64,000 bases of DNA from Candidatus Heimdallarchaeota archaeon (GTDB lineage Archaea; Asgardarchaeota; Heimdallarchaeia; Hodarchaeales; Hodarchaeaceae). Positions 5,535 to 43,227 of this stretch are shown in pieces. Both the position numbers and the translations under genes were made by a program. The notes beneath the pieces were generated by a model, which worked only from the letters and a program-made list of their open reading frames with translations, was not told the DNA's origin and made no database searches. How positions within the stretch are numbered: the stretch's first letter is position 1; every line of letters starts with the position of its first letter. Location: the NCBI GenBank assembly GCA_048881705.1, contig JBHLSH010000006.1, positions 1 through 64,000 of the forward strand. Reading direction: 5' to 3'.

Positions 5535-5562
5535 TAGGAAACAACCATTAGAGGAAATGTAG

Positions 5563-8189: not shown

Positions 8190-9578
8190 TCAGGAACTAT
8201 CAATTGTTACAGGTTGTTTCTTAAAACATCTAGCTATCCTTTCATATAAATCTGGAATGTTTTTGAAGAAATAATAATCGTAAAGCAGTGGCATAATCAT
8301 ATAATAGTCTCTATATGAGTAAGAATGAAGTAATTCAAACACGGGCCGATTTTTTTGAAGTTTTAACTCCTGAACTAGTTTTTCGTCTCCATAGTGAGAG
8401 ACTAGGGCCCTGAATTCCTTGAAACATTCCCTGTCTATTTTCGATATCGTGGGATGAAGATATTCCAACAATTCTTTTATTGTTTCAATTAACCATTGAC
8501 GTTCTTTTGTCTCCCAATTGGAGTCGAATTCTAAGATAGAGCCAATATTTCTACTTGTGGGACCATAAATCTTTTGTATAGTTTTTTTCCCTCTAAAAAC
8601 TCGTTTTCCCATCTCAATAACGAGATTTGCTTCTCTTAATTGCTTAATGTAACGATAGATGGTTTTTCTCGTTTTTTTGACGGGAGCTATCTGATTATAC
8701 TTTCTTACCAATTCACTTGTTGTTATTGGCCCATCTCGAATTATTTGAAACAAGGGAACATAGGTAGGTTTCTCGAAAAATCGGCCGATACCTTCTTTCG
8801 AAGAAATCCCAGAAAAAAATTCTGGATAATTCCGTAAAATGTCTTTGTAGGGCGCTTTTTGCCTATCAGGCCGAATGATAATTTCACGGGAATCAGGCCC
8901 TTCCTCTGTCGAACCTTTAAAGCAGGAGGAATATTGAATCTGAGCAAAGGGATTCTTAATCAGAAATGATTCCCAGCTCATGAATGCAAAAATCTCGTCG
9001 AACGGGTATGGCGTCCAGATTGAAATTTTTTCCAGAATCTCCGGATTTTCTGAAGTTAGAAGTTTTTCTCGGTCTTCCGCCGCGCTTTTGTTAAAGCGAA
9101 GATGCCAGTCATAGAGGTCTTCTTTAATGATTTTTTCGTTTGGGTATAGGTGTGAGAGAATTTTGAACAGTTCTCGAAATTGACGTTCTGTATCTGACTT
9201 TGTCCAACCCCGTAATCCCTCTTCAATAATAAAATAGTTTGTAGAGAGAGAATAAAGGGATTTAACATAAATTTTCCCTTCAACCACTCGTTTCCCAGCT
9301 TCTTGGACCAAGCCGTGTATGCGTAAATTCGATAAATAACGATAAATCGTCGATTCGCTTTTGGGAACCCTCTTGCCTGAACCAGAATGAAAGCGTTCAT
9401 GGATATCTTCAATGGTCGAAGGCCCATACTGATGCAACAAGGTTAGGATCCTGAAATTGCGTGGATCCCTTATAATTAAAATCAAATCTGAGGATCTAAT
9501 GATCTTCTTTACCTTAGGTTCTTGAATAATAATGTCTTCAACCTTTCCTGAACCTGCAGGCAGAGCATCCATTTTCAA
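8190..9578 (-). CDS. Tandem (internally duplicated) ArsR-like winged-helix transcriptional regulator
   Basis: Two copies of TIYRY...L...LV.E.GKRV..GK....Y: ESTIYRYLSNLRIHGLVQEAGKRV and RKTIYRYIKQLREANLVIEMGKRV. Start TTG 9578 or ATG 9572. Confidence 0.75.
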   Translation of the reverse strand: MKMDALPAGSGKVEDIIIQEPKVKKIIRSSDLILIIRDPRNFRILTLLHQYGPSTIEDIHERFHSGSGKRVPKSESTIYRYLSNLRIHGLVQEAGKRVVEGKIYVKSLYSLSTNYFIIEEGLRGWTKSDTERQFRELFKILSHLYPNEKIIKEDLYDWHLRFNKSAAEDREKLLTSENPEILEKISIWTPYPFDEIFAFMSWESFLIKNPFAQIQYSSCFKGSTEEGPDSREIIIRPDRQKAPYKDILRNYPEFFSGISSKEGIGRFFEKPTYVPLFQIIRDGPITTSELVRKYNQIAPVKKTRKTIYRYIKQLREANLVIEMGKRVFRGKKTIQKIYGPTSRNIGSILEFDSNWETKERQWLIETIKELLEYLHPTISKIDRECFKEFRALVSHYGDEKLVQELKLQKNRPVFELLHSYSYRDYYMIMPLLYDYYFFKNIPDLYERIARCFKKQPVTIDSS

Positions 9579-9805
9579 GTACCTTGCTTAGTCAATAGCG
9601 ACCCTTGTTATAGTCCTTTTTCCTTCTACGATTTCATCATGCAATTTGTAAACAGATTCATAAAGACAACATGCCTTTTTCGTAATATTTATATTAAATT
9701 TATCATTCTGACAAGATTGTTTCAAAAATCGAGAAAATTATTTCCAGAATGGCATAAGTTTTACATCGTGTATGGAAATTATCGGGTGAAATATAGCAGT
9801 AGAAG

Positions 9806-12439
9806 GTGAAGAGAATACTTCGAAATTCATTGAAAAGGAAAAGGAAATATCTAACCATTCTAACTTGTATCTCCTATTATCTATTCCTTATCGCTTTTCC
9901 TGGCTCCCTGGCTGGTGGTTTAATATCCATAAATCCTTCCAGCAATACTTCAGAGATTTCCAGCGATCTGATATACGCGAAGACAAGTGATTCTTTATTC
10001 GATCCCCGTTCTCCTGATGTTAAGACTCCTGAACACTACCTAATGAATCAAGAATTTCTAGATGAACGAGTAATAAACTCAAACATCACCGTTACGGTAA
10101 AATTGGACGATTTGAATTCTGTACTTGAAGGTAACATTTCTATCGACTACTATAATCAGGACCCTATCAATTTTGATCGTATTCCCTTCCACCTCTACCC
10201 TTCGGGAATGACATATGTTTCTCGAAAGGGTAGGATAGATATTCTTAGCGTAACTGACAAATCCGGCATGAATCTCTTGTTTGATCTGCTTTCGGATCAA
10301 CAACTTATGTGGATAAACCTGACGGGCGATCTTCCGCCCTCTATGAGTACAAGAATAAATATAAAGTTCAATACCACCATTCCTGACGGATATGATAGAT
10401 CTAATTCAAATGGCTTTGATAGCAATCAATCACGCATTTTCACAGTGACGGGATTCTATCCTATTCCCTGTGTTTATGATGATATTGACGGATGGAATAC
10501 GGATCCTTATATCAATGTTAGTGATCCGTTCTACTTTGACATGGCCAATTATGAACTGACTGTGATTGTTCCTACCGGATTTGTCGTTGCGGCGACAGGC
10601 GATTTGATAGATCGAAAGGCTCAAGGAAACTATATCTCTTACGAATTTAAACCGAATGCTCCCGTAAGAGAGGTCGTATTCTCCGCCTCTCGTTACTTCA
10701 TTATGGAAAGTACCATAAGCGGCGGAATTAATGTTTCAAGCTTTTTTTTGCCTCATAATAATGGATTATGGTCAAATAAAACGCTTGATGCTTCGATCAG
10801 GGCATTAACTCTCTTTAGTGATAAATTTGGTACGTATCCTTATACCACATATAATATTGTTGAAACTTACGGACTTTATAGTGGAATGGAGTACCCGTGT
10901 CAAGTTCAGATCTCTGAAGGGATTGCTGCACGTCATCCTGACGATGCCGATGTTTGGTTCGAACGTACCCTCGCCCATGAGGCAGCTCACCAATGGTGGA
11001 GCCAAATTGTTGGAAATGATCAGATAGATTTCGGTCATCTCGATGAAGGATTGGCTAGCTGGTCTACGGATTACTATTTTGACTATTACAATCCAGGCTG
11101 GAATTATTTTGAAGACTATTGGGCCATTAACGATGTTAGAACCTATTACATCAACAACAAGCAACCAGGCCGAGTAAACCAATCAGCTTACGCTTTCATT
11201 GGAACAAATATGAGTTTTGGATTTACAGCTTATACGAAGGCATCTTTACTCTTCCAAAAGCTTAGATCTACTCTAGGAAACAGTGATTATATTTCTGGAT
11301 TAAAAAACTTCTATGATACCTATAAATTCAAAATTGCAACGCTACCCCAGCTCCGACAATCCTTTGAAGAAGTTACGGGCAAGAATTTAGATTGGTTTTT
11401 CCTTCCATGGTTTGACAATCCCTATCTCCCCAATTATTATGTTAGCAATGTGACTTATAATCCTACTCAGAATAACATGAGTTTTACTGTGATAGACAGT
11501 AATGAAGATCTAAATAATTATTATTATTCTCAAAAACTCCCGATTGTGGTTTTGGATATTCGTTCATTTGGTATACTATACGGTGATCAGATCTGGGTCA
11601 ACGGTACAACCGAGGTTGAGGTTAATCTAATTGAGGGAATAGTTCCGGGTGAAATACGCCTCTTATACGATTCTGAAGTCCTTGCGCAGATGGGGTCGAC
11701 CGAAACTCCCTTCGTATCATATAGTGACCCTAGTTGGTTCAATGATCTGGAGCGCCCCGATTCCAGATGGTTTTCATTTGAAGAAGACGATTGGATTGAG
11801 TGGAACTATAGAGCTACGTTTATCGATATGAAGAACCAGATCCCATCGCTTGATCAGAGTGGGATTTTTTACTGCAATATTCTTCAAATGAAACGATTCA
11901 CTAGAACAGTTGAAATAGAATCCGAATGGATTTGGACTCCTTATCATGAACTGTTTTCCGAGTTTACGGGCATATTTACCAGTTATCTTGATGCTGAAAG
12001 CCATGTCACTCCCTATCATATGGCATTGGTTTCTTTTTTTGTGGGTTCTGAATTTCAGTTTACGCCGTCGTGGCTTGATTCAATAAGGCCATTGGTTGAT
12101 GCGCTGGATTATGAAATACAGAATGAGGGCCATGGACTTAACGTTAGGTACCTTGCAGGTGATGATAACTTCACAATTCTTGCAGATTATAATTCGGATG
12201 GTATCCTGGCCAATCTAGAGATAGCATTCCATCCGCTCTATCCAGGTGGGATTATGGGGCCAGAATTACACGGTAAACTCTCCTTATATCTCCGTAATAG
12301 CTCATTCAAAGATTATAGACCTGTATTGGCCTCTCTTGTAGAATTGGCTCTTATCCCTTTCTCTGCAGCGGTCGTCATCGCACATGTGGCTTGGTACCTA
12401 CGAAAACGAAGGAATCATTATTCAGATCGCCAGAGATGA
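9806..12439 (+). CDS. Membrane-anchored M1 family zinc aminopeptidase
   Basis: GMEYP exopeptidase motif; HEAAH-x18-E (LAHEAAHQWW...LDEGLA); Tyr in TAYTKA; N-terminal signal; C-terminal TM plus RKRR. Confidence 0.92.
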   Translation: MKRILRNSLKRKRKYLTILTCISYYLFLIAFPGSLAGGLISINPSSNTSEISSDLIYAKTSDSLFDPRSPDVKTPEHYLMNQEFLDERVINSNITVTVKLDDLNSVLEGNISIDYYNQDPINFDRIPFHLYPSGMTYVSRKGRIDILSVTDKSGMNLLFDLLSDQQLMWINLTGDLPPSMSTRINIKFNTTIPDGYDRSNSNGFDSNQSRIFTVTGFYPIPCVYDDIDGWNTDPYINVSDPFYFDMANYELTVIVPTGFVVAATGDLIDRKAQGNYISYEFKPNAPVREVVFSASRYFIMESTISGGINVSSFFLPHNNGLWSNKTLDASIRALTLFSDKFGTYPYTTYNIVETYGLYSGMEYPCQVQISEGIAARHPDDADVWFERTLAHEAAHQWWSQIVGNDQIDFGHLDEGLASWSTDYYFDYYNPGWNYFEDYWAINDVRTYYINNKQPGRVNQSAYAFIGTNMSFGFTAYTKASLLFQKLRSTLGNSDYISGLKNFYDTYKFKIATLPQLRQSFEEVTGKNLDWFFLPWFDNPYLPNYYVSNVTYNPTQNNMSFTVIDSNEDLNNYYYSQKLPIVVLDIRSFGILYGDQIWVNGTTEVEVNLIEGIVPGEIRLLYDSEVLAQMGSTETPFVSYSDPSWFNDLERPDSRWFSFEEDDWIEWNYRATFIDMKNQIPSLDQSGIFYCNILQMKRFTRTVEIESEWIWTPYHELFSEFTGIFTSYLDAESHVTPYHMALVSFFVGSEFQFTPSWLDSIRPLVDALDYEIQNEGHGLNVRYLAGDDNFTILADYNSDGILANLEIAFHPLYPGGIMGPELHGKLSLYLRNSSFKDYRPVLASLVELALIPFSAAVVIAHVAWYLRKRRNHYSDRQR

Positions 12440-28625: not shown

Positions 28626-29735
28626 CTATTCTGAAATAGAAATGATCCTATGCTGCGGAAGAAAGGAAAAGTGCTTTCTGATGAGGGGATCTGCTTTAGC
28701 GTATATACTAATGTTTGCTGAATCTAGATCAGAGCCAAAATCCCTCACAAATTGCCTGGTAAACTCCTTCAAAGCGGAGCGTAATAACAAAGATACCTTA
28801 TCAGCTATTAAGAATGTCACAATCTTCTGATCGGTCTCAAAAAGAAAGATATAGTTGTCAGTCTTAATCAATTGAATTTTTTCGGTTCTATCGATCACTG
28901 ATTGAACAAACTGCACGTTTGCGGTCATCAGGTGAGGGATTAAGATATTGACATCGGGCCCCTGTTTCTTGGTGTTAAAGAGAGCATCAAATATTGAAAG
29001 CCCCATATTCATGTTCATAACCGATAATCGATATACATTGAAGGGTAAAACTCGGAGCACTCGAGCGTCAATGACAATAGCTAAAATAACAAACAGAATT
29101 CCAATTGCTAAGGCAAATATTTCAATCCCCCAAATGGCAAGCGAGATTTTGGTAGCTATCAGAATGGCTGGAACCAAAATCGGAAAAATACAACCCAAAA
29201 AGAATAGTATTGAGGCTCTACTGTAATCCTGCGGAATATAAGGGATAAAATGGCTGATTTGGTAAATAACAATAAGAGTTAGTAATAACATTTCAACAAC
29301 CAGAATCGTACGCGGGAAATCCGCGAAATACGGCCCTATTCCTGGATCCCAAAGAAAAGATTCTGGCTGGATAGCCAATATGATGCTCATTCCGACACCA
29401 AAGGTAACGGCTGTGATAAGAATACTATATGGTTTGTCGGCCCGCAAGAGTTCAATAAACAAAACAAGCAGAAAACACAACAGAATAAGAATAATCACGC
29501 CAGCGCGATAGAGGATTAGGGAGAGTTGGAATTCAATATTGGCGATTGTGTATAACAAAGTGTGAAGCAAAAAATAGGGTACAAGCAAGAGGTGAATTAT
29601 CGTTAGAATAATAAGTGGGCGAGATCTTGAGGAACGATACACCGAGAGGGTTAAATAAAACCCCAACAGTGTAAGTAAGAGCGAAATAAACGCTAATATG
29701 GTATACTGCAGTTGATTAGCGGTTAAAGGGCTCAT
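28626..29735 (-). CDS. 7-TM membrane protein with C-terminal longin-like domain
   Basis: Seven hydrophobic segments in residues ~10-225, then VYRLSVMNMNMGLSIFD...IQLIKTDNYIFLFE....TFLIAD...LRSALKEFTRQF...F. Confidence 0.65.
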   Translation of the reverse strand: MSPLTANQLQYTILAFISLLLTLLGFYLTLSVYRSSRSRPLIILTIIHLLLVPYFLLHTLLYTIANIEFQLSLILYRAGVIILILLCFLLVLFIELLRADKPYSILITAVTFGVGMSIILAIQPESFLWDPGIGPYFADFPRTILVVEMLLLTLIVIYQISHFIPYIPQDYSRASILFFLGCIFPILVPAILIATKISLAIWGIEIFALAIGILFVILAIVIDARVLRVLPFNVYRLSVMNMNMGLSIFDALFNTKKQGPDVNILIPHLMTANVQFVQSVIDRTEKIQLIKTDNYIFLFETDQKIVTFLIADKVSLLLRSALKEFTRQFVRDFGSDLDSANISIYAKADPLIRKHFSFLPQHRIISISE

Positions 29736-30178: not shown

Positions 30179-31483
30179 ATGAATTATGAGTCACAATTTA
30201 TTAAAGAGACAAAAGATAGAATCAAGAATCTTCAAAGGCAAGGTCAACCCAACAAAATTCCTTCCATGGTTTCGGAGTTCTGGAATACTGTACAATCATC
30301 AGATTATCCAATTATTGAAAGATTGGAAGATGCAAACATCGCCAACAACAATACAGAATATAATTTCGTCACGTTTTTATATCGTACCAGTAAAAATGTT
30401 GATAATGTATTCTTGTTGGCCGAATTCAACTTCATTGATCCAAAAGATTATTTATTTGAACATATTGATGGAACTGACATTTTTTATAAAACATTCTTGC
30501 TTCCAAAAGGTGCACAAGCGGAGTATAGGATCTTTGAAAATGATCCGCTTGATGGTATCTTTGCAGGAGCTAAATATCAAAACCGTTTGGAGAGGTTTCA
30601 CGAACACCCAGATAAATTAAGTAGACATATTCGACGGATTCCTAATGGGTATCTGGGAAAAAAAGACCTTTTTATTGCCAGTTTACGTCCTTTTCCCCCA
30701 GAAATCTCCAATTTTGTGAATAATAAGAATCAGCAGAAGGGCGAAATTTCGACATATGAGCAGGAGAGCGATATCCTTGGATGTTCCAGAAAAATAAGTC
30801 TCTATACTCCAGCTGATTATAACGCCGAAGCAGCCTACAAGTTCATATTCATACATGATGGAAGTGCTGCTTTGAGCTATGGCGAAACACACACCCTAAT
30901 TGATTATCTAATTGCTTCAAAAGCCATCTCTCCCGTTGTTGGAATTTTTACCGATCCTGGAGTAAAAAATGGGAATACAACGCGAAATGAGGAATATCCA
31001 TGTAATCCTCACTATGCACGCTCAATTGTTCAGGAAATACTTCCTTGGGTTCGGGAAAACGTTAGCATTAGCAGCGATCCGAACGATGGGATTATCGCGG
31101 GTTCTAGTTACGGCGGATTAGCCTCCTTCTATTACAGTTTCATGTACCCCGAAAGCATTGCCAATGTTCTATCTCTATCAGGTTCCTTCCATTGGGGAAG
31201 GCCAGATGAAGATTATCCTTATGAGTGGCTCCCCCGAAAGATTGCCTTCTCCGAGAAGAAAGCAATAAAGGCATATTTGGAGGTAGGGAAGCTCGAGGGA
31301 GAATATCATTGGAATAGCCCTGGATTTCCAAATCAGATCGTCAGTCATAGACACTTCGTAACTATTTTGAGGATGAAAGGGTATTCATACGAATATAATG
31401 AATACAACGGTGATCACAGCCCTACTTCCTGGATAAAACCCCTAGAAAGGGGATTACGGTATTTTTTGGGTAAAAGAACTTGA
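30179..31483 (+). CDS. Enterochelin esterase (Fes)-like alpha/beta hydrolase
   Basis: N-terminal VTFLYR beta domain; RKISLYTP, FIHDG, GSSYGG, SLSGSF and GDH motifs; AGGAG RBS. Confidence 0.88.
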   Translation: MNYESQFIKETKDRIKNLQRQGQPNKIPSMVSEFWNTVQSSDYPIIERLEDANIANNNTEYNFVTFLYRTSKNVDNVFLLAEFNFIDPKDYLFEHIDGTDIFYKTFLLPKGAQAEYRIFENDPLDGIFAGAKYQNRLERFHEHPDKLSRHIRRIPNGYLGKKDLFIASLRPFPPEISNFVNNKNQQKGEISTYEQESDILGCSRKISLYTPADYNAEAAYKFIFIHDGSAALSYGETHTLIDYLIASKAISPVVGIFTDPGVKNGNTTRNEEYPCNPHYARSIVQEILPWVRENVSISSDPNDGIIAGSSYGGLASFYYSFMYPESIANVLSLSGSFHWGRPDEDYPYEWLPRKIAFSEKKAIKAYLEVGKLEGEYHWNSPGFPNQIVSHRHFVTILRMKGYSYEYNEYNGDHSPTSWIKPLERGLRYFLGKRT

Positions 31484-31760
31484 GGATTGCCCTTTCCAAA
31501 GAAATCTCCATCAAATAATTCGAAATTGCCTGATTGCAGTATCAGGTTGGTCCTAGACGGAGGTTATCCTGAGGAACTGGTGAATATGCATAGAATCGTG
31601 GAATGAATAGTAAACTCTCTCCAAAATCATTCTATATGGAAATCATCCAATATTACAGAGTCAGAATACAGAGTTCGTAGATAGAACGAAAAAAACGATA
31701 ACCGATATAATTACCTATATATGCAGTTATAGATACCGCGGATGTTCGAGATGAATTCGC

Positions 31761-32114
31761 TTGCTGGATGATCTCCTCCTATCAAAATGGCAAACCGAGT
31801 ACAAGAAAGGGTTTTCTAAACCTCTCATCCTTTTCACGCTCGCCAAAATAGGAAGTAGTTATGCCTATCTTCTCACAAAGAAGATTATGGAGTTAACAAA
31901 TGGAGAGATATCGATAGCAGGTTCGAATATTTATCCTATGCTAGCAAAACTAGAAGAAGACCGATTGATAATCAGTCAAAAAGACGAAAATGATAGAAAA
32001 TACTACGAGCTGAGTGAAACTGGTAGGGATTTTTTGGAACAGTTAGAACTCTCGATTAAAGAATTTAATGAGATAATGCTAGGATTAACCAAGAAAGATG
32101 AAGGAGAGCTCTAA
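31761..32114 (+). CDS. PadR family transcriptional regulator
   Basis: KGFSKPLILFTL....SYAYLL......GSNIYPMLAKLEE......RKYYELSETG. TTG start. Confidence 0.92.
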   Translation: MLDDLLLSKWQTEYKKGFSKPLILFTLAKIGSSYAYLLTKKIMELTNGEISIAGSNIYPMLAKLEEDRLIISQKDENDRKYYELSETGRDFLEQLELSIKEFNEIMLGLTKKDEGEL

Positions 32115-32790
32115 AGTAATGTCCCGATCGAAGGCTTTGGATCCTATTGACGGTTATCTACGAGAGGTAAGTGCCTTGCTTCCCTACCCTGAGGAAAGAA
32201 AAGCTCCCATCCTTGGAGAATTAAAAAAGGATGTAGAAGATGCGATGGGCGCTGAAAAACGTCCTCCTTCTGTCGTTTTTGGATCCCCAGTCGAAGTAGC
32301 TAAGAATCTGAGTATCGCGAATGATTGGGGAACAAAACCTGCTGGATGGGGAACACGTCTGATCGCTTCATTCATTGATTACGTGGCGACCCTAGGAGTC
32401 TTCATTCTGTTCGCTATCATTCAACTTATCCTATCGGACTTTCAAATCGATGAAATAAGATGGAATTCAATGCACATTCCTTTTGGTTTGCTTTTTATAG
32501 GTATTCCAATTATGGGGTTACTTTTGAGTTATTTTATTATTCTTGAAAAGACCTATTCCACAACCCTTGGGAAGAGAATATTGGGTCTTATAGTTGTAGA
32601 CGAGTCAGGGATTAATATAACTTGGACCCAGTCTTTGATTCGCAACTTTACAAAAGTTCCTTTTCTGACCTCATTTTTGCCATTCGATATTATTTTTGGG
32701 ATTGTATCGGAAAAAACACGCGGTAGGAAGCAGAGAGTTTTGGATTTTGTCGCAGGGACCAAAGTAATGCAGCAAAAAAAACGGATGTAA
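32098..32790 (+). CDS. RDD family membrane protein with N-terminal helical extension
   Basis: AGWGTRLIASFIDY, TLGKRILGLIV, IRN and QRVLDFVAGTKV motifs. Alternative start ATG 32119 after AAGGAG. Confidence 0.88.
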   Translation: MKESSKVMSRSKALDPIDGYLREVSALLPYPEERKAPILGELKKDVEDAMGAEKRPPSVVFGSPVEVAKNLSIANDWGTKPAGWGTRLIASFIDYVATLGVFILFAIIQLILSDFQIDEIRWNSMHIPFGLLFIGIPIMGLLLSYFIILEKTYSTTLGKRILGLIVVDESGINITWTQSLIRNFTKVPFLTSFLPFDIIFGIVSEKTRGRKQRVLDFVAGTKVMQQKKRM

Positions 32791-32800
32791 GGGTGCTTTT

Positions 32801-35800
32801 ATGGGATTAAGATCGAGTTTACTTATAGCTAAAAGAGCATTAACACGTAGAAAAGCCAAGAATATCAGTGCCATCCTTGCCATTACGTTAGGCGTAACGT
32901 TGATGGTTGGAATTCAGATAACAACGGATACGTTGGAGAACTCCTTTCTAACCGGTTTACTTCTTGATGAAGGCGAAGTGGACATTCGAGTTGGAAATGC
33001 AACGGGGAATTATCTAGCTATTGAAGTTCAGGATAACATCTCTGAGCTAGTTCCAGACGGAAAAATAATGCCTGAGCTGACATCACGAGGTCCTGTAATG
33101 GCGGGTTCTCAGTTTGAAGACTCCGTTCAATTTGCAGGGATTCCCTCCCAATATCCAGAGATCTTTGGTGACTTTTATGATTGGTTTACTCAAGAAAAAA
33201 TGAATATTAGTGATTATTTAACTGATAATAAAAGCGTTTTGTTGTCAAGCAACTTGGCCGAGGATTTGGATATAGAAAAAGACAGTCAATTACCAATAAC
33301 CTTGGTTACAGAGTTTAATAACCAATCCATCATTCTTCTACCAAATGGGACTGGTCCCCCCATTCCAACCCCGATTTTTACTGTCGAACAGGTTAATCTC
33401 TCTGTTGTAGGTTTATATGACTCCAATAGACCAGGGATTGGAGCGCAATATACTGGTCTTTTGATGTCCCTAAAGGGCCTTCAAGATTGGCTGAGTCTTC
33501 AGGATTTTTCTCGAAACTCAAATTTGGTTAGTTCCTATTTGATATCCTTTCAATCTGATCACTTTAATACCCGTATTGACCCTGATTTCCTACAGGAGAA
33601 GCTAGATTTTTTAAATGAAACTCTACCTGTCGGCCTTGTTAATGGAGAAACTCAACAGTTATTCGCGGCATCGTCTCCCCGTTTACTGTTTACGGAAATT
33701 ATTGATCTTGTCTTCAGCTTCATGTCTACCTTTTTAAATGTTCTAGGTCTGTTGATAGTACTCACGGGAGTATTACTTATAACAAATGTTCAACTAATGA
33801 GTGTTGAAGACCGAGAGTTCCAAACTGGCGTATTACGAGCTGTAGGGGAAAAAAGAAGAGGGATTTTTGTTTCTATGCTCTCTGAAACTCTTTTTCAAGG
33901 TGTTATCGGGGGGATAATTGGATTGGGTGGAGGACTAATTTTTGGTCAAGTCGTCGCACTCTATATCGCCAGTCTTTTTGAGACAGGCCAGTTTAGCGTC
34001 CGACCAGTCATAAATCAAACCATTATCATTTTCTCCGTCCTTATTGGCGTTGCCCTCGGTATTCTTACAGGCCTTCTCCCAGCATTACGAGCTTCACGTG
34101 TGAATGTGGTAGAAGCCCTTCGCGGCATTAAAATTCAATTCGAGGAAAAATCTGGTAGAAACCTAGTATTATTAAGCGTGTTGCTGGTAATCGGTGGAAC
34201 ACTCATTCTCTTAACAAATGGAGTTTTTGATGATAGTCTACAATACATTTGGGAAATTGAAGGATGGGACTCATTGGACGAATGGAGGAATATCCTCCTT
34301 GGATCGGCAATTCTCTTTTCTGGCCTTGGTATCATTCTATCTAGCTTTATAGACCGGATCAAGGCCCTTAATTTGACAGCACTCGTCATCTGGGCAGCGC
34401 CAGTTTTTCTGTTTGTCGTGGCAATGGGAGAAGGGTGGATCTCTGAATTTTCAGGTGGTCCATTTAATATCGATGTTTTTATCATTGCAATAATAGAGGT
34501 TGTAGTTGGATCGGTGTTAATTGTTGGTCTTAATTTGTCTCCCCTGATGAGATTCCTACGTAGAGCACTTATGCGAATAAGAGGTGTTAAAGGAGTGGCT
34601 CAAGTTGCACCAGCTCTAATCTCATCGCATAAGACACGTTCAACTCTAACCTTTGCAATCTTTGCAGTAGTTCTCACTCTGAATGTTGTAGTCGCAGCGC
34701 TTGTAGCAACTAACCTTTCTAGCTCGATAGGCCAGGCCGAGACAGACTCTCGCGGTATAGATTTATTTGTCTCACTTAACAAGCCTGAAGTGGTATTAAA
34801 CGATACCTCCTATACAAAACTATTATTTAACGTATCCGATAGTATAACTGACGTCATAGGGATGAAAACATTCCACAGCAGGACGGATTTCACCAAATAT
34901 ATCGCCCTAAAAAAACCCGGCTCTGAGGGATACAATCCATCGACAGACCATCTTCCGCTCAAATTTGTAGAACTACGGTCAGAGCAAATCAGAGGCAATG
35001 CCACTAGCGCTGGAGATGAAAACTGGAGATATGATAGCTTTTTAGGGAGTTTTCCTGATGGCGTCGGTGAACTTTCTTCCTCCTCTGGAGGTTTCTTCGG
35101 TCCTGGCTTTGGTGGTCAATCTGATGATTTGGAAGCATTGGAACTCTCAAAAAAAGCATTTGATGCTTTCTTCAATTCCTCCTATACCATGGCTGCATAT
35201 AATGTGTCGTTCTCATTGTCCTCCCTAAGCGATTTTGACATTGAAGACTTTTCATCTTTTTTTGAATCGGATTTGGAAGATGTAGAAAAATTAGAGAATG
35301 AGAACGGGTCATTAATTAAAAATCCTATCGTTTTTACCGATTCTCTAATCCTCCCACTTGGAATGCAGATCTTTGTGCCTATGAATATGACATTTAGTCC
35401 CTCGGCTAATAGAACAGAAATTGTTTATCAACCGTTCACAATTGGTGGGAAGTTTGACCGAGAACGAACTGTCGGATTTGCTCTCTCGGGTGGTGGCTTT
35501 TCTACCAGAGCTATCGGAGAAGAGAGTGATCAATCAAACTTTCTGGGGAGAATCTATATTCCTGAGCGGTTTTCAAAATATACGAATTTTTTTGGTGAAG
35601 CTGGAGGAGCTTCCTACTCTTCAAGAAAACTGAATCAATTTGACACCTTTCTAATTAAAACCTCCTATGCGTTTGATGATCCAAGGATAGAAGAACTTGC
35701 TATCAAGATCGAGAATTTCACAAATACAGAAGAAGCCGGATATAGAAAATTAGCTAATGATGACTTTCTGGTTGCAACCACTACCTCATTGTATTCCGAG

Positions 35801-36217
35801 GTAGAAGCAAGCTTGGAATCGACCGTACAGATGACATCATTCCTAACAATCTACGTTAATTTCGGATTAATTATCGGTGCTGTGGGAATGGCCGTGATTA
35901 GCGTTAGAAATGTTTCTGAAAGAAAACGAGAAATAGGGATGATGCGCGCAATAGGATTCCCAAGATTTCAGGTTATGTTAGCTGCCCTCTTGGAGCTATT
36001 GGTGTTAGGATTTATTGGTTTAATCATTGGTGTTGTCAACGGGCTTTTGATTAACGTCGGCTTTGCTAATATGATGGAAGTGCCGATAGTTATCCCATGG
36101 GACACATTAGCAGCCTATCTTTCTTTAATTACCCTTATAGGATTGCTTGCAGGAGCTATACCTGGATTCATTGCTTCCAGAATACCTGCCGCGGAGGCCT
36201 TGAGATATGTTGGATAA
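32801..36217 (+). CDS. Double-FtsX/MacB-type ABC transporter permease
   Basis: Two MacB-like halves with SVEDREFQTGVLRAVG and VSERKREIGMMRAIG coupling motifs; two large extracytoplasmic domains. Confidence 0.92.
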   Translation: MGLRSSLLIAKRALTRRKAKNISAILAITLGVTLMVGIQITTDTLENSFLTGLLLDEGEVDIRVGNATGNYLAIEVQDNISELVPDGKIMPELTSRGPVMAGSQFEDSVQFAGIPSQYPEIFGDFYDWFTQEKMNISDYLTDNKSVLLSSNLAEDLDIEKDSQLPITLVTEFNNQSIILLPNGTGPPIPTPIFTVEQVNLSVVGLYDSNRPGIGAQYTGLLMSLKGLQDWLSLQDFSRNSNLVSSYLISFQSDHFNTRIDPDFLQEKLDFLNETLPVGLVNGETQQLFAASSPRLLFTEIIDLVFSFMSTFLNVLGLLIVLTGVLLITNVQLMSVEDREFQTGVLRAVGEKRRGIFVSMLSETLFQGVIGGIIGLGGGLIFGQVVALYIASLFETGQFSVRPVINQTIIIFSVLIGVALGILTGLLPALRASRVNVVEALRGIKIQFEEKSGRNLVLLSVLLVIGGTLILLTNGVFDDSLQYIWEIEGWDSLDEWRNILLGSAILFSGLGIILSSFIDRIKALNLTALVIWAAPVFLFVVAMGEGWISEFSGGPFNIDVFIIAIIEVVVGSVLIVGLNLSPLMRFLRRALMRIRGVKGVAQVAPALISSHKTRSTLTFAIFAVVLTLNVVVAALVATNLSSSIGQAETDSRGIDLFVSLNKPEVVLNDTSYTKLLFNVSDSITDVIGMKTFHSRTDFTKYIALKKPGSEGYNPSTDHLPLKFVELRSEQIRGNATSAGDENWRYDSFLGSFPDGVGELSSSSGGFFGPGFGGQSDDLEALELSKKAFDAFFNSSYTMAAYNVSFSLSSLSDFDIEDFSSFFESDLEDVEKLENENGSLIKNPIVFTDSLILPLGMQIFVPMNMTFSPSANRTEIVYQPFTIGGKFDRERTVGFALSGGGFSTRAIGEESDQSNFLGRIYIPERFSKYTNFFGEAGGASYSSRKLNQFDTFLIKTSYAFDDPRIEELAIKIENFTNTEEAGYRKLANDDFLVATTTSLYSEVEASLESTVQMTSFLTIYVNFGLIIGAVGMAVISVRNVSERKREIGMMRAIGFPRFQVMLAALLELLVLGFIGLIIGVVNGLLINVGFANMMEVPIVIPWDTLAAYLSLITLIGLLAGAIPGFIASRIPAAEALRYVG

Positions 36218-36230
36218 TGGAGGTAAAAGA

Positions 36231-36974
36231 ATGTTAGAAACGATCGCAGAAGATCCAGATTTTGTTGAGGCAGAACCAATCCTCTATATCACCGATTTGC
36301 ATAAACGTTATAACGAGGGAAAATCGAATGAAGTACATGCTCTTCGTGGATTAGACCTGGAGGTAAAAAAAGGGGATATGATGGCAATTATGGGACCTTC
36401 CGGGTGCGGAAAAACAACCCTACTCAACATGATCGGACATTTGGATGTTAGTTCGGGAGGAACAATTGTAATCAGTGGCATTGATACCGGAGAGCTTTCC
36501 GATCGGGAGATGACTGCCTTTCGAAGAGACAACATCGGTTTCATATTTCAGCTCTTCAATTTGTTTCCGTTTTTGACAGCGGTAGAGAACGTAGAAACTC
36601 CCCTATTATTAAAGGGCCTTAAATCAGGAGTTGCAAGAGAACAGGCCAAAATGCTTTTGAGAGACCTAGGAATGGGAGATCGACTATATCATTATCCCTT
36701 AGAGCTTTCAGGTGGCCAACAACAACGAGTTGCAATCGCGCGTGCTTTGATTAATCAGCCTGCGATTATTCTGGGTGACGAACCGACGGGAGATCTGGAC
36801 AGTACCACAAGTGCAGTGATAATGGAACTCTTTCGTAGAATAAATACGATGAATAAACAGACATTTGTTCTGGTTACGCACAACAGGTGGATTGCCGAAA
36901 AATGCGATTACATCGTCCATATGACCGATGGGGTAATTTCCAATGTTGAGTATGGCCCGTTTCAGGAGGACTAG
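36231..36974 (+). CDS. LolD/MacB-type ABC ATP-binding protein
   Basis: GPSGCGKT, LSGGQQQR, ILGDEPTG and VTH motifs. Start ATG 36231 after GGAGGT. Confidence 0.95.
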   Translation: MLETIAEDPDFVEAEPILYITDLHKRYNEGKSNEVHALRGLDLEVKKGDMMAIMGPSGCGKTTLLNMIGHLDVSSGGTIVISGIDTGELSDREMTAFRRDNIGFIFQLFNLFPFLTAVENVETPLLLKGLKSGVAREQAKMLLRDLGMGDRLYHYPLELSGGQQQRVAIARALINQPAIILGDEPTGDLDSTTSAVIMELFRRINTMNKQTFVLVTHNRWIAEKCDYIVHMTDGVISNVEYGPFQED

Positions 36975-36976
36975 CA

Positions 36977-39760
36977 GTGGTAAGAGTATACACCGCAGCC
37001 TTAATAGATAAACCTCTACGCTCTATAAATAAGAATTTACAGAAAAAAATTACTTCTGATTTGAGAAAATCTCTAAAAGTTCGGGGTGATGCAGTAACTG
37101 GCCAGGAATTGAACACATTCCTCCTAGTTTCCGGCAGAAACGGAAAGAAGGGATTTACTCCGGAAATGATAGACAAGGTTGAAAAGGGAACCATTCAGAA
37201 AAGACTTAAACAGTATTACACCAGAAATGAGTCACGTTTTAGGAACCATATGAAGAATAATCAAGAGTTATATGAAACCTCGCAGGTAGTAAAGGAATTC
37301 ATCCGGGAGATTGATTCGTCGCTTCCCAGAAAGTTTGACCAACATTTAAAGAAAATTAACACGGATTTACCGGAAATTTTCTGCCAAGTTAGCATGAAGA
37401 GCTTTATTACATTATGGGAGATTGAGGAGAAAGAAGAATATCGTTTTAACCTATCTGGATTTGATTTTCCCATATTTACTGGAAAAACCAATGGAACCTC
37501 ATTCGATATAGGTGGGTTGGTAGATAAACTTCTCATCGTAAATTTCTTTGAGACTTTCTTAAATTCAACTCTCCAGCGATTGGATGAGATGAACCACGTT
37601 CTTGAACGCCTTGAGTACGAACTTGCCAAGCCACACTATCTGATTAAGAACGAAAAACTGCATGCCAAATTTTCCCTCTTTCTACGAATTCTGGTTGCGA
37701 AACTAAGCGCCCTACAAGAGCTAGAAAACTCGATCTTTCGTATCTTTAGTCTGTTTGACATACCGTACATGATTCTTCTTCAGTATCATTTCAAGAGCGA
37801 TTTTCTAGATTTAAATAACGAAATTGCCAGGATTTGTGAGGAGATAAATACAGGGAAAAATAAACTCAATGAGGTTGGGGAGCGAATTGATCGTTGTCAA
37901 TTATCCCTCCGAGATTATCTTGATGATGGTATTAATGGAGTAACTGTAACCAATTCTTTTCAAGTTTTCAAAGATGCCTTGAAACCACTGGCCGATTTAA
38001 GTATCGATTTATTTATAGAATCTGAGATGTTAAAACTTTGGTCGGATTATTTCGGCTCGGATATTCCTTATTTCAGTTTTAATGTGCAATTAGACGAGGA
38101 TACCGACACCGAGGAGGCTATTGAGATTGAAGATGATGTCATTTTAGCTGTTAGAGGGCTTTATAAGAACTATAACCTTGGTCGTACTACCGTTTATGCA
38201 GTGAGGGGAGTAAATCTCGATATTAAGGCTGGTGAGTTTGTCGCAATCGTTGGCAGTTCAGGCGCAGGCAAGACAACACTATTAAACTGTATGGCCAGTT
38301 TAGATACTCCTGATCATGGTGCCGTTTATTTTCGAGGGAAAGACTTACACCATATGAAAGATTCGGAGAAAGCAGAAGTTAGACTTCACGAAATGGGCTT
38401 TATCTTCCAGAGCTACGCTTTATTACCTCATTTTGACACTCGTGAAAATGTAACCCTTCCAGCAAATCTGGCAGGCGGACTAAGCAAAACTATCAGAACT
38501 CGAATTGAGAATCTGTTGGTTGGAGTAGGGATAAGCGAACAGGCAAAGCAATATCCTGCCCAATTGAGTGGAGGACAGATGCAACGGGTGGCAATTGCAC
38601 GAGCTCTTACTAATCAACCTACTATCATATTTGCTGATGAGCCCACGGGTGATTTGGATTCAGTAACTGGGATTCAAGTGATGGAATTGTTAAAGAAATT
38701 CCATGAGGAAACAAGGACGACGATTGTGATCATCACACATGAGGAAAGCATTGCTGGTTATGCGGAGCGGCAGATTATGATGGAAGATGGAATAATTACA
38801 CAGCGAAAACGGCCCGTTGATCAAGCTGGGCAGTCCATCCTGATGGAAAAGCCGCCAATCATTAAAACTGAGGCCGAACTACCTCCAATTTCGAACGAAA
38901 GAGTAAGCAGAATCGAAGAGAGGTTGGGGATGATTGAGAAGAAAAATATAGAACTATTGGGTAAGGTAGTGAAAGAGGTTCAAAAACAGTTAGATGAGGT
39001 AAGAGGCAAAATAGAAGTTCTTGGGGTCGAAACCAATAAAAAGCTGCTGGATCTGAGTACAAGATTTGAACAATTAAACACCAACGCCAGTAATTGGTCC
39101 TTTGCAATCAATGAGCAGATGGAATCATTTCGTGCTCAATACGTTCAAGCGCTGGAAGAGCTCCGGCAATCTACAATCAGATCAGCCGAAAAGGAAACCA
39201 TTCTTTCTCAAAAGTATACAGAGCTTGTCGGGCAACTAAGAGAAAAAGAACGTATGGCAATCGAAAAAGGTAATTTAAATAAAATAAGGCTCAGTGCATT
39301 ACAAAAGGAGATACAAAGGAAGGAATCAGACCTAGGGATCTATAAGGATAGATTAGAAGAGCTGGAGTCTGAAATAAAGGTAAAACAACAGCATATTGAT
39401 GAATCCGCTGAAATCAAAATGAAGACCGAAAACCTTGTAAACAACTACAGAAAGCTAAAGGAAGCTTATGATGATAAGAGTAGGGAAGTGACTCAATTAC
39501 AAGCTCAACTAGCAGCCGTGACTGAAGATACCCAGAAGATCGTCAAAAGCACCAATGCAATAAAGGCATTCCTCGATGAGAGTGATTCAGGTCGAATTCT
39601 GTATCAGCTGCTTAATTCTGAACGTATGACTCTGGATGAACTAGCGGCTCGGACAGAAATCGCAACATATACTGTTTACCAAATTGTTCAACATTTTCGT
39701 GAAATTGGTGTTGCTCAATACGATAATTCTACTCGTATAGTAACCTTGGTAAATAGATAG
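36977..39760 (+). CDS. Multidomain protein: N-terminal helical domain, LolD-type ABC ATPase, coiled coil, C-terminal winged helix
   Basis: Central GSSGAGKT / LSGGQMQR / IFADEPTG / ITH; ~230 aa of heptad-rich E/K/L/Q sequence; terminal GRILYQLL...MTLDELAARTEI....VYQIVQHFREIGV. GTG start after GGAGGA. Confidence 0.88.
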   Translation: MVRVYTAALIDKPLRSINKNLQKKITSDLRKSLKVRGDAVTGQELNTFLLVSGRNGKKGFTPEMIDKVEKGTIQKRLKQYYTRNESRFRNHMKNNQELYETSQVVKEFIREIDSSLPRKFDQHLKKINTDLPEIFCQVSMKSFITLWEIEEKEEYRFNLSGFDFPIFTGKTNGTSFDIGGLVDKLLIVNFFETFLNSTLQRLDEMNHVLERLEYELAKPHYLIKNEKLHAKFSLFLRILVAKLSALQELENSIFRIFSLFDIPYMILLQYHFKSDFLDLNNEIARICEEINTGKNKLNEVGERIDRCQLSLRDYLDDGINGVTVTNSFQVFKDALKPLADLSIDLFIESEMLKLWSDYFGSDIPYFSFNVQLDEDTDTEEAIEIEDDVILAVRGLYKNYNLGRTTVYAVRGVNLDIKAGEFVAIVGSSGAGKTTLLNCMASLDTPDHGAVYFRGKDLHHMKDSEKAEVRLHEMGFIFQSYALLPHFDTRENVTLPANLAGGLSKTIRTRIENLLVGVGISEQAKQYPAQLSGGQMQRVAIARALTNQPTIIFADEPTGDLDSVTGIQVMELLKKFHEETRTTIVIITHEESIAGYAERQIMMEDGIITQRKRPVDQAGQSILMEKPPIIKTEAELPPISNERVSRIEERLGMIEKKNIELLGKVVKEVQKQLDEVRGKIEVLGVETNKKLLDLSTRFEQLNTNASNWSFAINEQMESFRAQYVQALEELRQSTIRSAEKETILSQKYTELVGQLREKERMAIEKGNLNKIRLSALQKEIQRKESDLGIYKDRLEELESEIKVKQQHIDESAEIKMKTENLVNNYRKLKEAYDDKSREVTQLQAQLAAVTEDTQKIVKSTNAIKAFLDESDSGRILYQLLNSERMTLDELAARTEIATYTVYQIVQHFREIGVAQYDNSTRIVTLVNR

Positions 39761-40127: not shown

Positions 40128-40946
40128 ATGTCATCATCAGAAAACAATCTTGGAAGTTATTATTATGTAGAATTTCCCATCAATCGACAGATCCTTAGTG
40201 ACCTGTATGATGAATTTCTTAGGAAACATTATTCCATAGGTTACCTGGAAGTAAGTGTTTCCAAAGCTAAAGAATTGATTAGCAAATTTGCAGTGAAGAC
40301 TGGGGAAAGAATTTCCTTCACCGGCTGGATTGTGAAGTGCATCAGTGATGCTGTCCTTCAGTTTCCAGAGTTTAATTCGTATCGAAAGGGCAGAAACAAA
40401 CTTGTAACGTTTGAAGACATTGATATTATCGTAATGGTGGAGCGTCAGGTACATGATAAACTTATTCCAGTTCCTTATTCGATTCGAAAGACCACAAAGA
40501 AAGATTTGTTGACTATTTCCAGGGAAATAAGAACAGCACAAAACATGGAAGTAACTGAGGAAAATCAGCTTCTTGACCAGGGAATCCTCACCAAACTATA
40601 CCCGTTTATTCCAGGAATTATTAGACGACGCCTGATTAGACGTATTCTTCGAAATCCTTTTTCTATTAAGAAACAAGGAGGGCTAATTGTAGTTACTTCG
40701 GTCGGTATGTTTACCAATACTCGGGGGTGGGTAGGCGGGTTCGGCGGGATAACGACGCTCAATTTTGCAATTGGTGGAATCACTCAAAAACTCGTTAAAT
40801 CTGGCGGTTCTATCAAAGAAGAACAATATTTGCAGATTACATTATCTCTCGACCACGATATTATTGATGGGGGTCCGGCTGCTCGTTTCTCAGCTTATTT
40901 AGTGAATTTATTTGAAAATGCAAGTGGTTTGAATGGATTAGTTTAG
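40128..40946 (+). CDS. Stand-alone 2-oxoacid dehydrogenase E2 acyltransferase catalytic domain
   Basis: ISFTGWIVKC, FPEFN, VTSVG and SLDHDIIDG (HxxxDG) motifs; no lipoyl or E3-binding domain. Confidence 0.88.
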   Translation: MSSSENNLGSYYYVEFPINRQILSDLYDEFLRKHYSIGYLEVSVSKAKELISKFAVKTGERISFTGWIVKCISDAVLQFPEFNSYRKGRNKLVTFEDIDIIVMVERQVHDKLIPVPYSIRKTTKKDLLTISREIRTAQNMEVTEENQLLDQGILTKLYPFIPGIIRRRLIRRILRNPFSIKKQGGLIVVTSVGMFTNTRGWVGGFGGITTLNFAIGGITQKLVKSGGSIKEEQYLQITLSLDHDIIDGGPAARFSAYLVNLFENASGLNGLV

Positions 40947-41183
40947 CATCAAATTCTATGCCCTCTTCGACCTATCTTTATCTGTTGGCAATAGCCCAAA
41001 TACCTGATTTTAGAAAAGGAATTTCCGAATTTAAACCTAAAACGCCTTCTTTTTAGATTCATCTAACTTTAAATTCAAGAAAAATTGTCATTGGATTCAC
41101 CTTAATTAGATATATCAAATTAGATACCGTAATACTGATATAACAATAAGGAAACTGCTGAATAGGCAAAAAGAGATGACACC

Positions 41184-41549
41184 ATGGTTGAAGTAGAAAT
41201 AACGCTTAGTTTTTTATGGGTCTCCATAATGTTTTGTTATTTATATGGGGATGTGTTTTCCATACTGGCTGGGGATTTTAAACCAGGTGAAATAGATGGA
41301 AAACCATTAAGCGAGTACATGGTTCTAGGAATGGCCATGATAATGACAATTCCAATAACTATGATCGTCCTAACCTTAGTATTGGATTACTCAATCAGTC
41401 GTTGGGCAAACATTCTCGTTTCTCTGGGCTATATCATTTTCAATGTGTTATCCCTTCGGAATTATCCAAGCTATGAAAAATTTACTCTGCTGGTATCCAT
41501 GGTATTTAATGTAACAGTAGTCTATCTTGCATTCACTTGGGCAATCTAA
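41184..41549 (+). CDS. DUF6326-like small 4-TM membrane protein
   Basis: LSFLWVSIMFCYLYGDV...PGEIDG...RWANI pattern; paralogue at 53246. Confidence 0.75.
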   Translation: MVEVEITLSFLWVSIMFCYLYGDVFSILAGDFKPGEIDGKPLSEYMVLGMAMIMTIPITMIVLTLVLDYSISRWANILVSLGYIIFNVLSLRNYPSYEKFTLLVSMVFNVTVVYLAFTWAI

Positions 41550-41554
41550 GGATT

Positions 41555-42226
41555 TTAGAAGAATTCAGATAATGTTGTTTTGGGGCTTTTCTTTTTTGCG
41601 GGTTTTATTGTAGCCGGCCCGTTATCCCCCTTACTCGGTAGTGTATCAACAATCCAACTATTCATCTCTCCCTCATACGGTTTAAGGATCGCTAATAACT
41701 CTTCTTGAGTTTTCTCATAATCGAGCCAAAAATCGACTAGTTTTTTATCAAAAATGACTGGCATTCTATGAAAAACCTTTTCAACAACGGGATGAGGTTC
41801 AGTTGTTAAAACTGCACACTTATACCTCATCCTGGTCTCCTCTTCATCAAAATAAGAATTATAAATACCAGCAATTCCGAATAATGGCTCATTTTTTAAG
41901 GAAAAGTAATATGGGATTCTTTCTTTACCCACTCGCTCCCATTCAAAAAAACCGTTTGCAAGAATAACACAACGTTTTTCCACAAAGGCTTTCCTAAAAA
42001 GCTTTTTTTCATGAACCGTTTCACTTCGGGCTTTATATGATTGAAAACCTTTTGTATAACCCCAATACATTCGAACTAGTTTGTATCCTTCTTCATTTAC
42101 AATTGCAGTTGCTCTGTTTGTTGGTTTAAGATTGTAATAAGGAAAAATCTCAAGGTTCCCTGGAGAAACGCCAAATGTTGATTCAATTTCATCTTTTGAC
42201 GCAAAAAAGGCAAATCTGGAAGGCAT
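41555..42226 (-). CDS. SOS response-associated peptidase (SRAP/YedK/HMCES) family protein with non-canonical N-terminus
   Basis: YNLKPT, MYWG, ARSET, RCVILANGFFEW, LFGIAGIY and HRMPVIF motifs; begins MPSRF instead of MCGRF. Confidence 0.88.
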   Translation of the reverse strand: MPSRFAFFASKDEIESTFGVSPGNLEIFPYYNLKPTNRATAIVNEEGYKLVRMYWGYTKGFQSYKARSETVHEKKLFRKAFVEKRCVILANGFFEWERVGKERIPYYFSLKNEPLFGIAGIYNSYFDEEETRMRYKCAVLTTEPHPVVEKVFHRMPVIFDKKLVDFWLDYEKTQEELLAILKPYEGEMNSWIVDTLPSKGDNGPATIKPAKKKSPKTTLSEFF

Positions 42227-42408
42227 AGGATTCGATTCGGCACCTGTTTTAAAAAAATGTTTTACGAAGCTTAAAATGGGGGACTCGTTAAGAATGCCTG
42301 AATTTTAACTGGAGAGGATAAGTCATCTACTCAAAGAATATTGATGGAGATACAATTACATTTCGGAAAGCGGATTTCGGAGATATTCCCTCTCTCATAA
42401 ATGTCTAC

Positions 42409-43227
42409 ATGGACTCACTGACCGACTTAGAAACAAGAATGAATGTTTCTCCTTCTCTGCCGTCTAAATCAGAGATGGAGAAATTCTATCGGCATGCCAT
42501 GTCAAGCGGGGACTTTTTTGTCGCACTTGCTGATAAGAAGATTATTGGATTCAGTGGGGCTATTATCCGAGACACATTATGGTTTTTATCAGCCTTTTGG
42601 GTTCTTCCTTCTTTTCAAAAAAGCGGTATTGGCTTTTCTCTTCTTGAACGCGTATATGAGAAAGGGGTCAGTCGTGGTGCGTCAGTTTTTTGTGTATATT
42701 CTTCTAGTGATTTTCCAGCATTAGCATCTTACATGAAAATGGGTATGTTTCCTGGCTACCCAGTTTTTTATTTTGAGGGAACTCCGAAAAGAGCTTCCTT
42801 TTCAGAAGCTAATTCACCTCGATCTGAGGAATTACAGGAAGGTATAGCCACAGAACTAGATTTAGAAATTCGAGGGGTTGATAGATTGACAGATCATAGA
42901 TATTGGAAATCATTAGGATCAAGAGCGGTTCAAATTGAAATTGAAGGCACAATGGCGGGATATTACTATGTTAGAGAGGGATTTATTGGTCCTGTGGTAA
43001 GTAAACAGTCCAAGGACATGGAATTATTACTTAATTTAGCTATAAAAGACGCTGTGGACTTTTCTCCAAATAAAAATATCACATTAATGGTTCCTGGTAT
43101 CAATCATCTTGCCCTAAAGTGGATCTTGAAGACTGGATTTAGAATCAGGTCGACTTCACATTTTTTGACATCAAAAAAGTTTGGAAACCTTACTAATTAT
43201 CTTCCCTCTGGCCCTGGTTTATATTGA
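42409..43227 (+). CDS. GNAT family N-acetyltransferase (two-domain)
   Basis: LSAFWVLPSFQKSGIGFSLL motif A; ASYMKMGM; second GNAT-like half. The reading frame stays open upstream to 42322. Confidence 0.85.
   Translation: MDSLTDLETRMNVSPSLPSKSEMEKFYRHAMSSGDFFVALADKKIIGFSGAIIRDTLWFLSAFWVLPSFQKSGIGFSLLERVYEKGVSRGASVFCVYSSSDFPALASYMKMGMFPGYPVFYFEGTPKRASFSEANSPRSEELQEGIATELDLEIRGVDRLTDHRYWKSLGSRAVQIEIEGTMAGYYYVREGFIGPVVSKQSKDMELLLNLAIKDAVDFSPNKNITLMVPGINHLALKWILKTGFRIRSTSHFLTSKKFGNLTNYLPSGPGLY

Follow-up and report, generated by a model that had tools for sequence, protein, structure and literature searches.

An archaeal type VII ABC operon with two distinct ATPases, one of them extended in a Hodarchaeales subclade by a predicted long helix and winged helix

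The 64,000-nucleotide (nt) stretch of DNA analysed here, referred to below as the window, comes from a Candidatus Heimdallarchaeota archaeon (Hodarchaeales, Asgard; contig JBHLSH010000006.1, positions 1 to 64,000) and carries a five-gene operon for an ATP-binding cassette (ABC) system of type VII, in which a duplicated FtsX permease is encoded next to two different ATPases. The last gene of the operon encodes a protein of 927 amino acids (aa) in which the second ATPase is followed by a long predicted helix, the stalk, and a winged helix, which together we refer to as the tail. Comparison of homologues indicates that this fusion is genuine, conserved and of single origin, and we are highly confident of the domain architecture, its conservation, its single origin and the purifying selection acting on it. 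The whole explanation that we propose, with its inferred steps of a heterodimeric ATPase pair, a winged helix that binds DNA and a link to the ATP cycle, is more tentative, and we would put its probability at roughly 45%.

The four-part 927-aa protein and the origin of its tail

The 927-aa protein (36977-39760; this and all other features described are on the forward strand) has no hydrophobic segment in its hydropathy profile and consists of four parts: a 388-aa N-terminal domain (N-domain), an ATPase, a 228-aa helix and a winged helix. The ATPase part (ATPase 2; residues 389-616, 38141-38824) is a complete LolD/MacB-like ABC ATPase (ABC_tran, E = 3.9e-33; TIGR02211, E = 1.7e-63), and an earlier annotation made from the sequence alone (the initial annotation), which had placed an intact ATPase at about 38140-38810, agrees with the presence of all six motifs there (Walker A at residue 426, Q-loop at 478, LSGGQ at 530, Walker B at 550, D-loop at 558 and H-loop at 588). 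A linker follows (residues 617-640, 38825-38896) which includes a conserved methionine, Met623, and is predicted to be disordered by AlphaFold2 (AF2; predicted local distance difference test, pLDDT, <50). Beyond it AF2 predicts the stalk as one continuous helix (residues 641-868, 38897-39580; pLDDT mostly >90), which would be about 34 nm long if straight (228 residues at about 0.15 nm each) and which carries a conserved N-x-S-N-W-S-F-A-x-N-E-Q motif, and finally a C-terminal winged helix-turn-helix (wHTH) with a helix-strand-helix-helix-strand-strand topology (residues 870-924, followed by the stop codon; 39584-39760). The initial annotation had described some 230 aa of coiled coil with a terminal wHTH, and both the length of the helix and the predicted wHTH topology bear this out. 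In a crude periodicity test, the hydrophobic period of 3.45-3.55 expected of heptads was seen at tail residues about 161-230 only, with a hendecad-like period of 3.6-3.75 at tail residues 21-100 and no clear period at 105-160; because heptad spacing is confined to the last third of the helix, we describe the modelled stalk as likely, rather than certain, to be a coiled coil.

The same annotation did not describe the 388-aa N-domain (residues 1-388, 36977-38140), which is conserved throughout the family and is predicted to be a cytoplasmic domain of alpha/beta plus helical structure (AF2 pLDDT 90.6; predicted template modelling score 0.87). It has no Pfam match, a Foldseek search of the PDB returned nothing at E <= 0.001 (best 0.18), the best VIA-align Z score against 48,161 chains was 6.5 and within the noise range of the tool, and the ESM Atlas gave no usable match. 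Weak resemblances of residues 1-195 to the palm/ferredoxin-like fold (GGDEF, cyclase and Cas10 proteins), and of the N-domain to CorA, were not accepted. In an exhaustive, profile-free HMMER search of 1.8 billion representatives, only 48 clusters contained the N-domain, which in complete proteins was always fused to ATPase 2 and never found elsewhere, and the complete ones were about 605-616 aa in length (N-domain plus ATPase). We note that one homologue, P0054, which is labelled Odinarchaeota, has a 55-residue insertion in the N-domain (alignment columns 327-381) that resembles a duplicated helix.

In nearly all relatives the ATPase 2 protein terminates after the ATPase, at about 608 aa. The initial annotation had left it to be checked whether homologues are also fused, and this is the case: about 10 full-length homologue clusters of 904-941 aa align over 100% of their length with 65-86% identity, and among the 22 species genomes of the group the long form is found in five, all with the same junction, and the 608-aa form in 13. 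A tree of the N-domain and ATPase places the long forms in one clade (Shimodaira-Hasegawa-like approximate likelihood ratio test, SH-aLRT, 100) nested among the short forms, a second tree of tails and free homologues places the fused tails in one clade (SH-aLRT 99), and the branching of the long forms is similar in both, the two trees agreeing on the basal pair and on the sister pair. The ratio of nonsynonymous to synonymous substitution rates (dN/dS) between this genome and its nearest relative (G061) is 0.12 for the stalk and 0.12 for the winged helix, compared with 0.09 for the N-domain and 0.07 for the ATPase, and the tail is under purifying selection. The conserved clusters, the shared junction, the single clade and the dN/dS of about 0.12 together argue that the fusion is neither an assembly artefact nor a private loss of a stop codon.

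Sequence comparison further indicates that the tail derives from a duplicate of a free coiled-coil/winged-helix gene specific to the lineage. The free paralogue in this genome is a protein of 292 aa encoded on another contig (C60:22077-22952; L009:10078-10956) and is 38-39% identical to the tail; members of the free family are about 300-340 aa long, are annotated as hypothetical, and align with the tail from the first residues of the stalk to the last strand. Of 21 sister genomes, 20 have the gene, each as a single copy, just two further genomes of the class contain distant relatives (27-29% identity), and a search of the ESM Atlas found only unnamed Asgard clusters. Genomes with the long form hold both fused and free copies, which share 38-41% identity within the same genome. 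According to the initial annotation, a separate coiled-coil/wHTH gene in relatives would speak for a private fusion or an assembly error; such a gene does exist, but as a paralogue located elsewhere that coexists with the fusion, and a split version of the fused gene was rejected because the free gene never adjoins the ABC operon in the genomes compared. Among the matches listed for longer proteins, this ATPase is the sole fusion partner of the module, which is a weak pointer. The free gene is preceded here by a gene for a protein with seven transmembrane helices, whereas in five of the seven relatives examined it is followed by a macro-domain gene; the seven-helix protein was rejected as a conserved membrane partner of the free paralogue because this upstream gene is common to the closest relative only.

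Permease, ATPases and their distribution

The permease (1138 aa, 32801-36217) matches FtsX (PF02687) twice (E = 1.5e-31), at residues 314-435 and about 1002-1134, and shows the four-helix FtsX module of type VII ABC systems. Hydropathy analysis identified about 12 hydrophobic segments and two large hydrophilic stretches (residues about 44-299 and 644-1010), which we take to be two large extracytoplasmic domains, and the match to MacB_PCD (PF12704) is sub-threshold (E = 8.5e-5; 23.4 bits against a cutoff of 27). ATPase 1 (255 aa, 36207-36974; ABC_tran, E = 1.5e-32) is a plain LolD/MacB-like ABC ATPase in which the catalytic motifs Walker A, Q-loop, LSGGQ, Walker B, D-loop and H-loop are all present, and it is 42% identical to ATPase 2, making the two paralogues. 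The best NCBIfam matches of both ATPases are LolD, MacB, YbbA, DevA and FtsE. It should be noted that both fall below the LolD equivalog cutoff (TIGR02211, 307.75 bits; ATPase 1, 224.5 and ATPase 2, 214.1), and for this reason the term LolD-type denotes resemblance and not membership.

A scan of one genome per species identified the N-domain in 80 loci, about 17 from Hodarchaeales and about 60 from Bathyarchaeia, and the order permease, ATPase 1 and N-domain ATPase 2 was found in every locus with enough flanking sequence. ATPases of the LolD/MacB/FtsE group are thus encoded beside the permease in the 80 loci, as in type VII systems, and across these loci the permease is syntenic and 52-95% identical while ATPase 1 is 75-98% identical. 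Identity across the two phyla is 52-64% for the permease, 75-85% for ATPase 1, 70-85% for ATPase 2 and 33-63% for the N-domain. When Bathyarchaeia loci are compared with those of Hodarchaeales, values of 75-85% for ATPase 1 and 52-59% for the permease are seen, and such high identity suggests horizontal transfer or extreme constraint. Within the class to which the window belongs, the N-domain is limited to one group, in which 18 of 21 genomes are positive. The phyletic pattern of the architecture, another check proposed with the initial annotation, can thus be given as a trio found in Hodarchaeales and Bathyarchaeia, to which stalk and winged helix are added in one Hodarchaeales subclade. As about 75 of the 80 species run the same ABC system without it, we regard the tail as accessory.

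Some Hodarchaeales genomes hold a second, divergent trio of a double-FtsX permease, a plain ATPase and an N-domain ATPase, in which the N-domain is 26% identical, so that the two-ATPase design has persisted even as the trio duplicated and diverged. One example lies at about 4480-10093 of the stretch G058:C1:3006000-3022000, with no PadR or RDD match upstream. Some N-domain ATPases from Bathyarchaeia (L049:10001-12151; P0062) end in another kind of extension, about 110 aa long and containing hydrophobic helices, which means that additions have been gained at the C-terminus of ATPase 2 more than once. In the single-contig relative G056, the permease match covers only residues 510-1138 and neither a PadR nor an RDD gene turned up within 9 kb upstream of the ATPase genes, and the operon there may be truncated or rearranged.

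Proposed working and competing explanations

We propose that the operon encodes a type VII machine like MacB, FtsEX and YbbAP, in which one pseudo-symmetric double-FtsX permease would display two large outward-facing domains and the two different ATPases would most likely dock one per permease half. In YbbP, a double-FtsX permease that is likewise pseudo-symmetric, each of two YbbA ATPases has its own coupling helix (PMC12646458), and because a permease of this kind offers two coupling helices, each of the two ATPases here would sit on one of them; two different and catalytically complete ATPases beside a pseudo-symmetric permease fit with an asymmetric pair. In one Hodarchaeales subclade, a duplicated coiled-coil/winged-helix gene would then have become fused in frame to the C-terminal end of ATPase 2, and the flexible linker and the stalk would hold a MarR/TrmB-type winged helix at the cytoplasmic face of the machine. 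The target of the winged helix, which is probably DNA or else a conserved protein partner, would be localised to the machine, or come under the control of the ATPase pair as this opens and closes with ATP. The stalk would pair with the tail of another complex or with the free paralogue, or stay single. The tether to DNA or to a partner that the initial annotation had suggested is plausible in this light.

In sequence, the nearest relatives of the winged helix are DNA binders of the MarR, TrmB, Lrp and TFE types. MarR_2 matches 10 of 11 members of the tail family (best E = 7.6e-7, for a free member), with matches to TrmB and Crp-type models as well, and the window's own winged helix falls under all Pfam cutoffs with the exception of Mga, where it is at the cutoff. 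Foldseek superimposed it on MarR and IclR with a root-mean-square deviation (rmsd) of 1.6-1.7 Å over 55-57 aa, although E-values were only 0.006-0.03, and on the PCI winged helices of COP9 and the proteasome lid with an rmsd of 1.4-2.3 Å. The recognition helix and the Arg of the wing are invariant across fused and free copies, which suggests that both share one target.

A number of points weigh against our proposal. The winged helix fits PCI winged helices, which bind proteins, and DNA-binding winged helices about equally and is slightly acidic (net charge -1), and MarR-type domains normally bind DNA as dimers. The pairing of ATPase 1 with ATPase 2 is drawn by analogy, and a heterodimer would provide a single tail without a partner for a dimeric coiled coil, a point missed by the initial annotation. 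The absence of the tail from about 75 of the 80 species makes it dispensable for the core function, and since the free paralogue is never found beside the operon, gene neighbourhood offers no separate evidence that the two are connected in species that lack the tail. Finally, the conserved ATG of Met623 leaves room for separate translation of the tail.

Several of these points would be accommodated if the tail were a protein-recruitment arm, either forming a mixed coiled coil with the free paralogue or carrying a protein-binding winged helix of the PCI/cullin kind, either of which would bring a soluble factor to the membrane machine. The structural match to COP9 and proteasome-lid PCI domains and the net negative charge speak for this, as do the retention of a free copy in every long-form genome and the conserved positions common to fused and free stalks along their whole length, including the N-W-S-F-A part of the stalk motif, and the problem of one tail per complex would be resolved. 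However, the sequence of the winged helix is nearest to DNA binders, and a pair of fused and free copies in one genome is only 38-41% identical; on balance we think this explanation doubtful.

The position of Met623 raises a different explanation, in which the fusion has no function of its own, the duplicated gene having landed downstream and the stop codon been lost, with the tail still made mainly as a separate protein from the Met623 ATG (38843-38845). This ATG is conserved in the five species and may be left over from the start codon of the captured gene or serve as an internal start, the residues after Met623 are loosely like the basic N-terminus of the free proteins, and most species run the core system without a tail. 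Set against this, the frame has stayed open without a stop across about 10 diverged sequences (65-86% identity), the linker between the ATPase and Met623 is itself conserved, with the motif AG(Q/R)xILME(K/E) kept in the same five species, and no clear ribosome-binding motif was found before Met623, and we find a functionless fusion distinctly unlikely.

We consider it very unlikely that ATPase 2 with its N-domain, and with the tail where there is one, forms a soluble dimer acting on DNA in the manner of SMC, Rad50 or ABC-F proteins, while two ATPase 1 subunits serve the permease. If the 927-aa protein paired with itself, the stalk would naturally be two-stranded and end in two winged helices, the Pfam model SMC_N has weak matches on the ABC ATPases of the operon, and source labels on the free family include 'chromosome segregation ATPase'. 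Such 'Smc' labels mirror coiled-coil composition only, however, and the topology is wrong: in SMC and Rad50 the ATPase is split by the coiled coil, whereas ATPase 2 is contiguous at residues 389-616 with the helix after it and no coiled-coil insertion between Walker A and Walker B, and on this ground we rejected an SMC/Rad50-like reading. ATPase 2 also belongs to the LolD/MacB/FtsE group, and its gene follows those of the permease and ATPase 1 after a 2-nt gap in each of the 80 loci and again in the divergent second trio. An assembly error or a private stop loss in this genome is practically excluded by the occurrence of the same 904-941-aa architecture in independent assemblies from several studies, including two single-contig genomes or large contigs.

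Regulatory genes, related systems and significance

The initial annotation had described five tightly packed genes with ribosome-binding sites, and the packing is as described, with successive junctions formed by a 17-nt overlap, a 10-nt gap, an 11-nt overlap and a 2-nt gap between the genes for a PadR regulator, a HAAS-like/RDD membrane protein, the permease, ATPase 1 and the 927-aa protein. Shine-Dalgarno-like motifs were found for the last three genes (AGGGTG before 32801, GGAGG before 36207 and AGGAGG before 36977) and are weak or absent 5' of the first two, for which this part of the description does not hold. The PadR-family winged-helix regulator (117 aa, TTG start, 31761-32114) scores well above the family cutoff (PF03551, E = 4.4e-14; 52.7 bits against 27), as does the RDD module of the membrane protein (32098-32790; PF06271, E = 1e-17; 65.2 bits against 24.1), which has two strong hydrophobic segments. 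The N-terminal cytoplasmic domain of the latter (residues about 17-70) is HAAS-like: its match to HAAS (PF22564) is weak and sub-threshold (E = 0.0024; 18.7 bits against 27), the model matches two of seven orthologues (best E = 1.1e-4), and an FGxP motif corresponding to the GxP motif described for HAAS is invariant in the orthologues. In the 80-locus scan this pair of genes was located 5' of the trio in Hodarchaeales only, and Bathyarchaeia loci have a longer PadR of about 180 aa and no HAAS/RDD gene.

HAAS-PadR pairs have been proposed as an alternative to two-component signalling, and HAAS has been linked to FtsX/MacB modules as well (PMC11237479). The two genes here likely form a comparable pair that would convey a membrane signal to transcription, as a standalone PadR adjoins a membrane protein with a HAAS-resembling N-terminus and GxP motif. 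They differ from the published dyad in that an RDD module is joined to the HAAS-like part and the FtsX permease is encoded separately, in that the HAAS match is under the Pfam threshold, and in the lack of a HAAS/RDD gene in the Bathyarchaeia relatives. An AT-rich, TATA-like imperfect palindrome (31706-31731), 30-55 nt 5' of the first start codon, is a candidate archaeal promoter or PadR operator on the basis of its sequence. The genes flanking the operon (28626-29735, 30179-31483 and 40128-43227) seem unrelated to it, their products being a protein without Pfam match, an esterase-family protein, an orphan 2-oxoacid dehydrogenase E2 catalytic domain, a DUF6326 protein, a SRAP-family protein and a GNAT acetyltransferase, and all are syntenic in the nearest relative.

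Type VII ABC systems are known almost wholly from bacteria, where they have two identical ATPases and act on the outer envelope. Like MacB, LolCDE and FtsEX, the system described here has the four-helix FtsX module, LolD/FtsE-like ATPases and probably an external domain between the first and second transmembrane (TM) helices, but it differs in being archaeal, with no outer membrane or peptidoglycan, in having ATPases that fall below the LolD and FtsE equivalog cutoffs, and in combining two different ATPases, whose heteromeric pairing we infer, with extra cytoplasmic domains. The system also resembles YbbAP, in which the double-FtsX permease is again one pseudo-symmetric protein that has linking helices and domains facing outward, and which has LolD/MacB-group ATPases, two of which occupy two separate coupling helices in YbbAP. 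YbbP, however, binds two copies of one ATPase and not the products of two distinct conserved genes, its ATPase carries neither the 388-aa N-domain nor the stalk and winged helix of the subclade, and it has 10 hydrophobic segments compared with about 12, plus two large external domains, in the permease here, for which no TesA-like partner was seen.

In MalK-MalT and BceAB-BceS, an ABC ATPase or transporter signals its activity state to a separate, non-covalently bound transcription regulator, whereas the winged helix here is covalently attached via the stalk and regulation is only proposed. Chromosome anchors of the RacA type combine an N-terminal DNA-binding helix-turn-helix (HTH) domain with a long coiled coil, linking DNA to a membrane-associated partner, and are not fused to an ATPase; the likeness lies in an HTH-type domain joined to a long coiled coil, but here the domain is at the C-terminus of an ATPase fusion and homology was not detected. 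Literature searches found no description of this family or of the fusion, and the two distinct ATPases, the new N-domain, and the stalk and winged helix of the subclade set the system apart from the YbbAP, MacB and FtsEX machines.

The family offers a clean case for studying the way in which an asymmetric pair of ATPases powers a pseudo-symmetric FtsX permease, and also bears on the role of such machines in cells without peptidoglycan or an outer membrane. The tail is found in few species only and its function is an inferred one, which limits its interest, though the lineage is itself of evolutionary interest and the architecture is unusual. Within the subclade, the fusion acts as a 'Rosetta stone' that points to a functional link of the machine with an uncharacterised coiled-coil/winged-helix protein specific to Hodarchaeales. 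If the winged helix binds DNA, it would make a direct connection between a membrane machine and DNA, and if it does not, a candidate partner of the machine has still been identified. We think unlikely a bolder extension, in which the stalk of about 34 nm and a DNA-binding winged helix would wire the machine to the chromosome such that ATP-driven movements at the envelope, or the position of the machine, directly organise or regulate DNA, with the free paralogue as the general version of the anchor. If true, this would be a link from transporter to chromosome without a described counterpart, in the archaea closest to eukaryotes.

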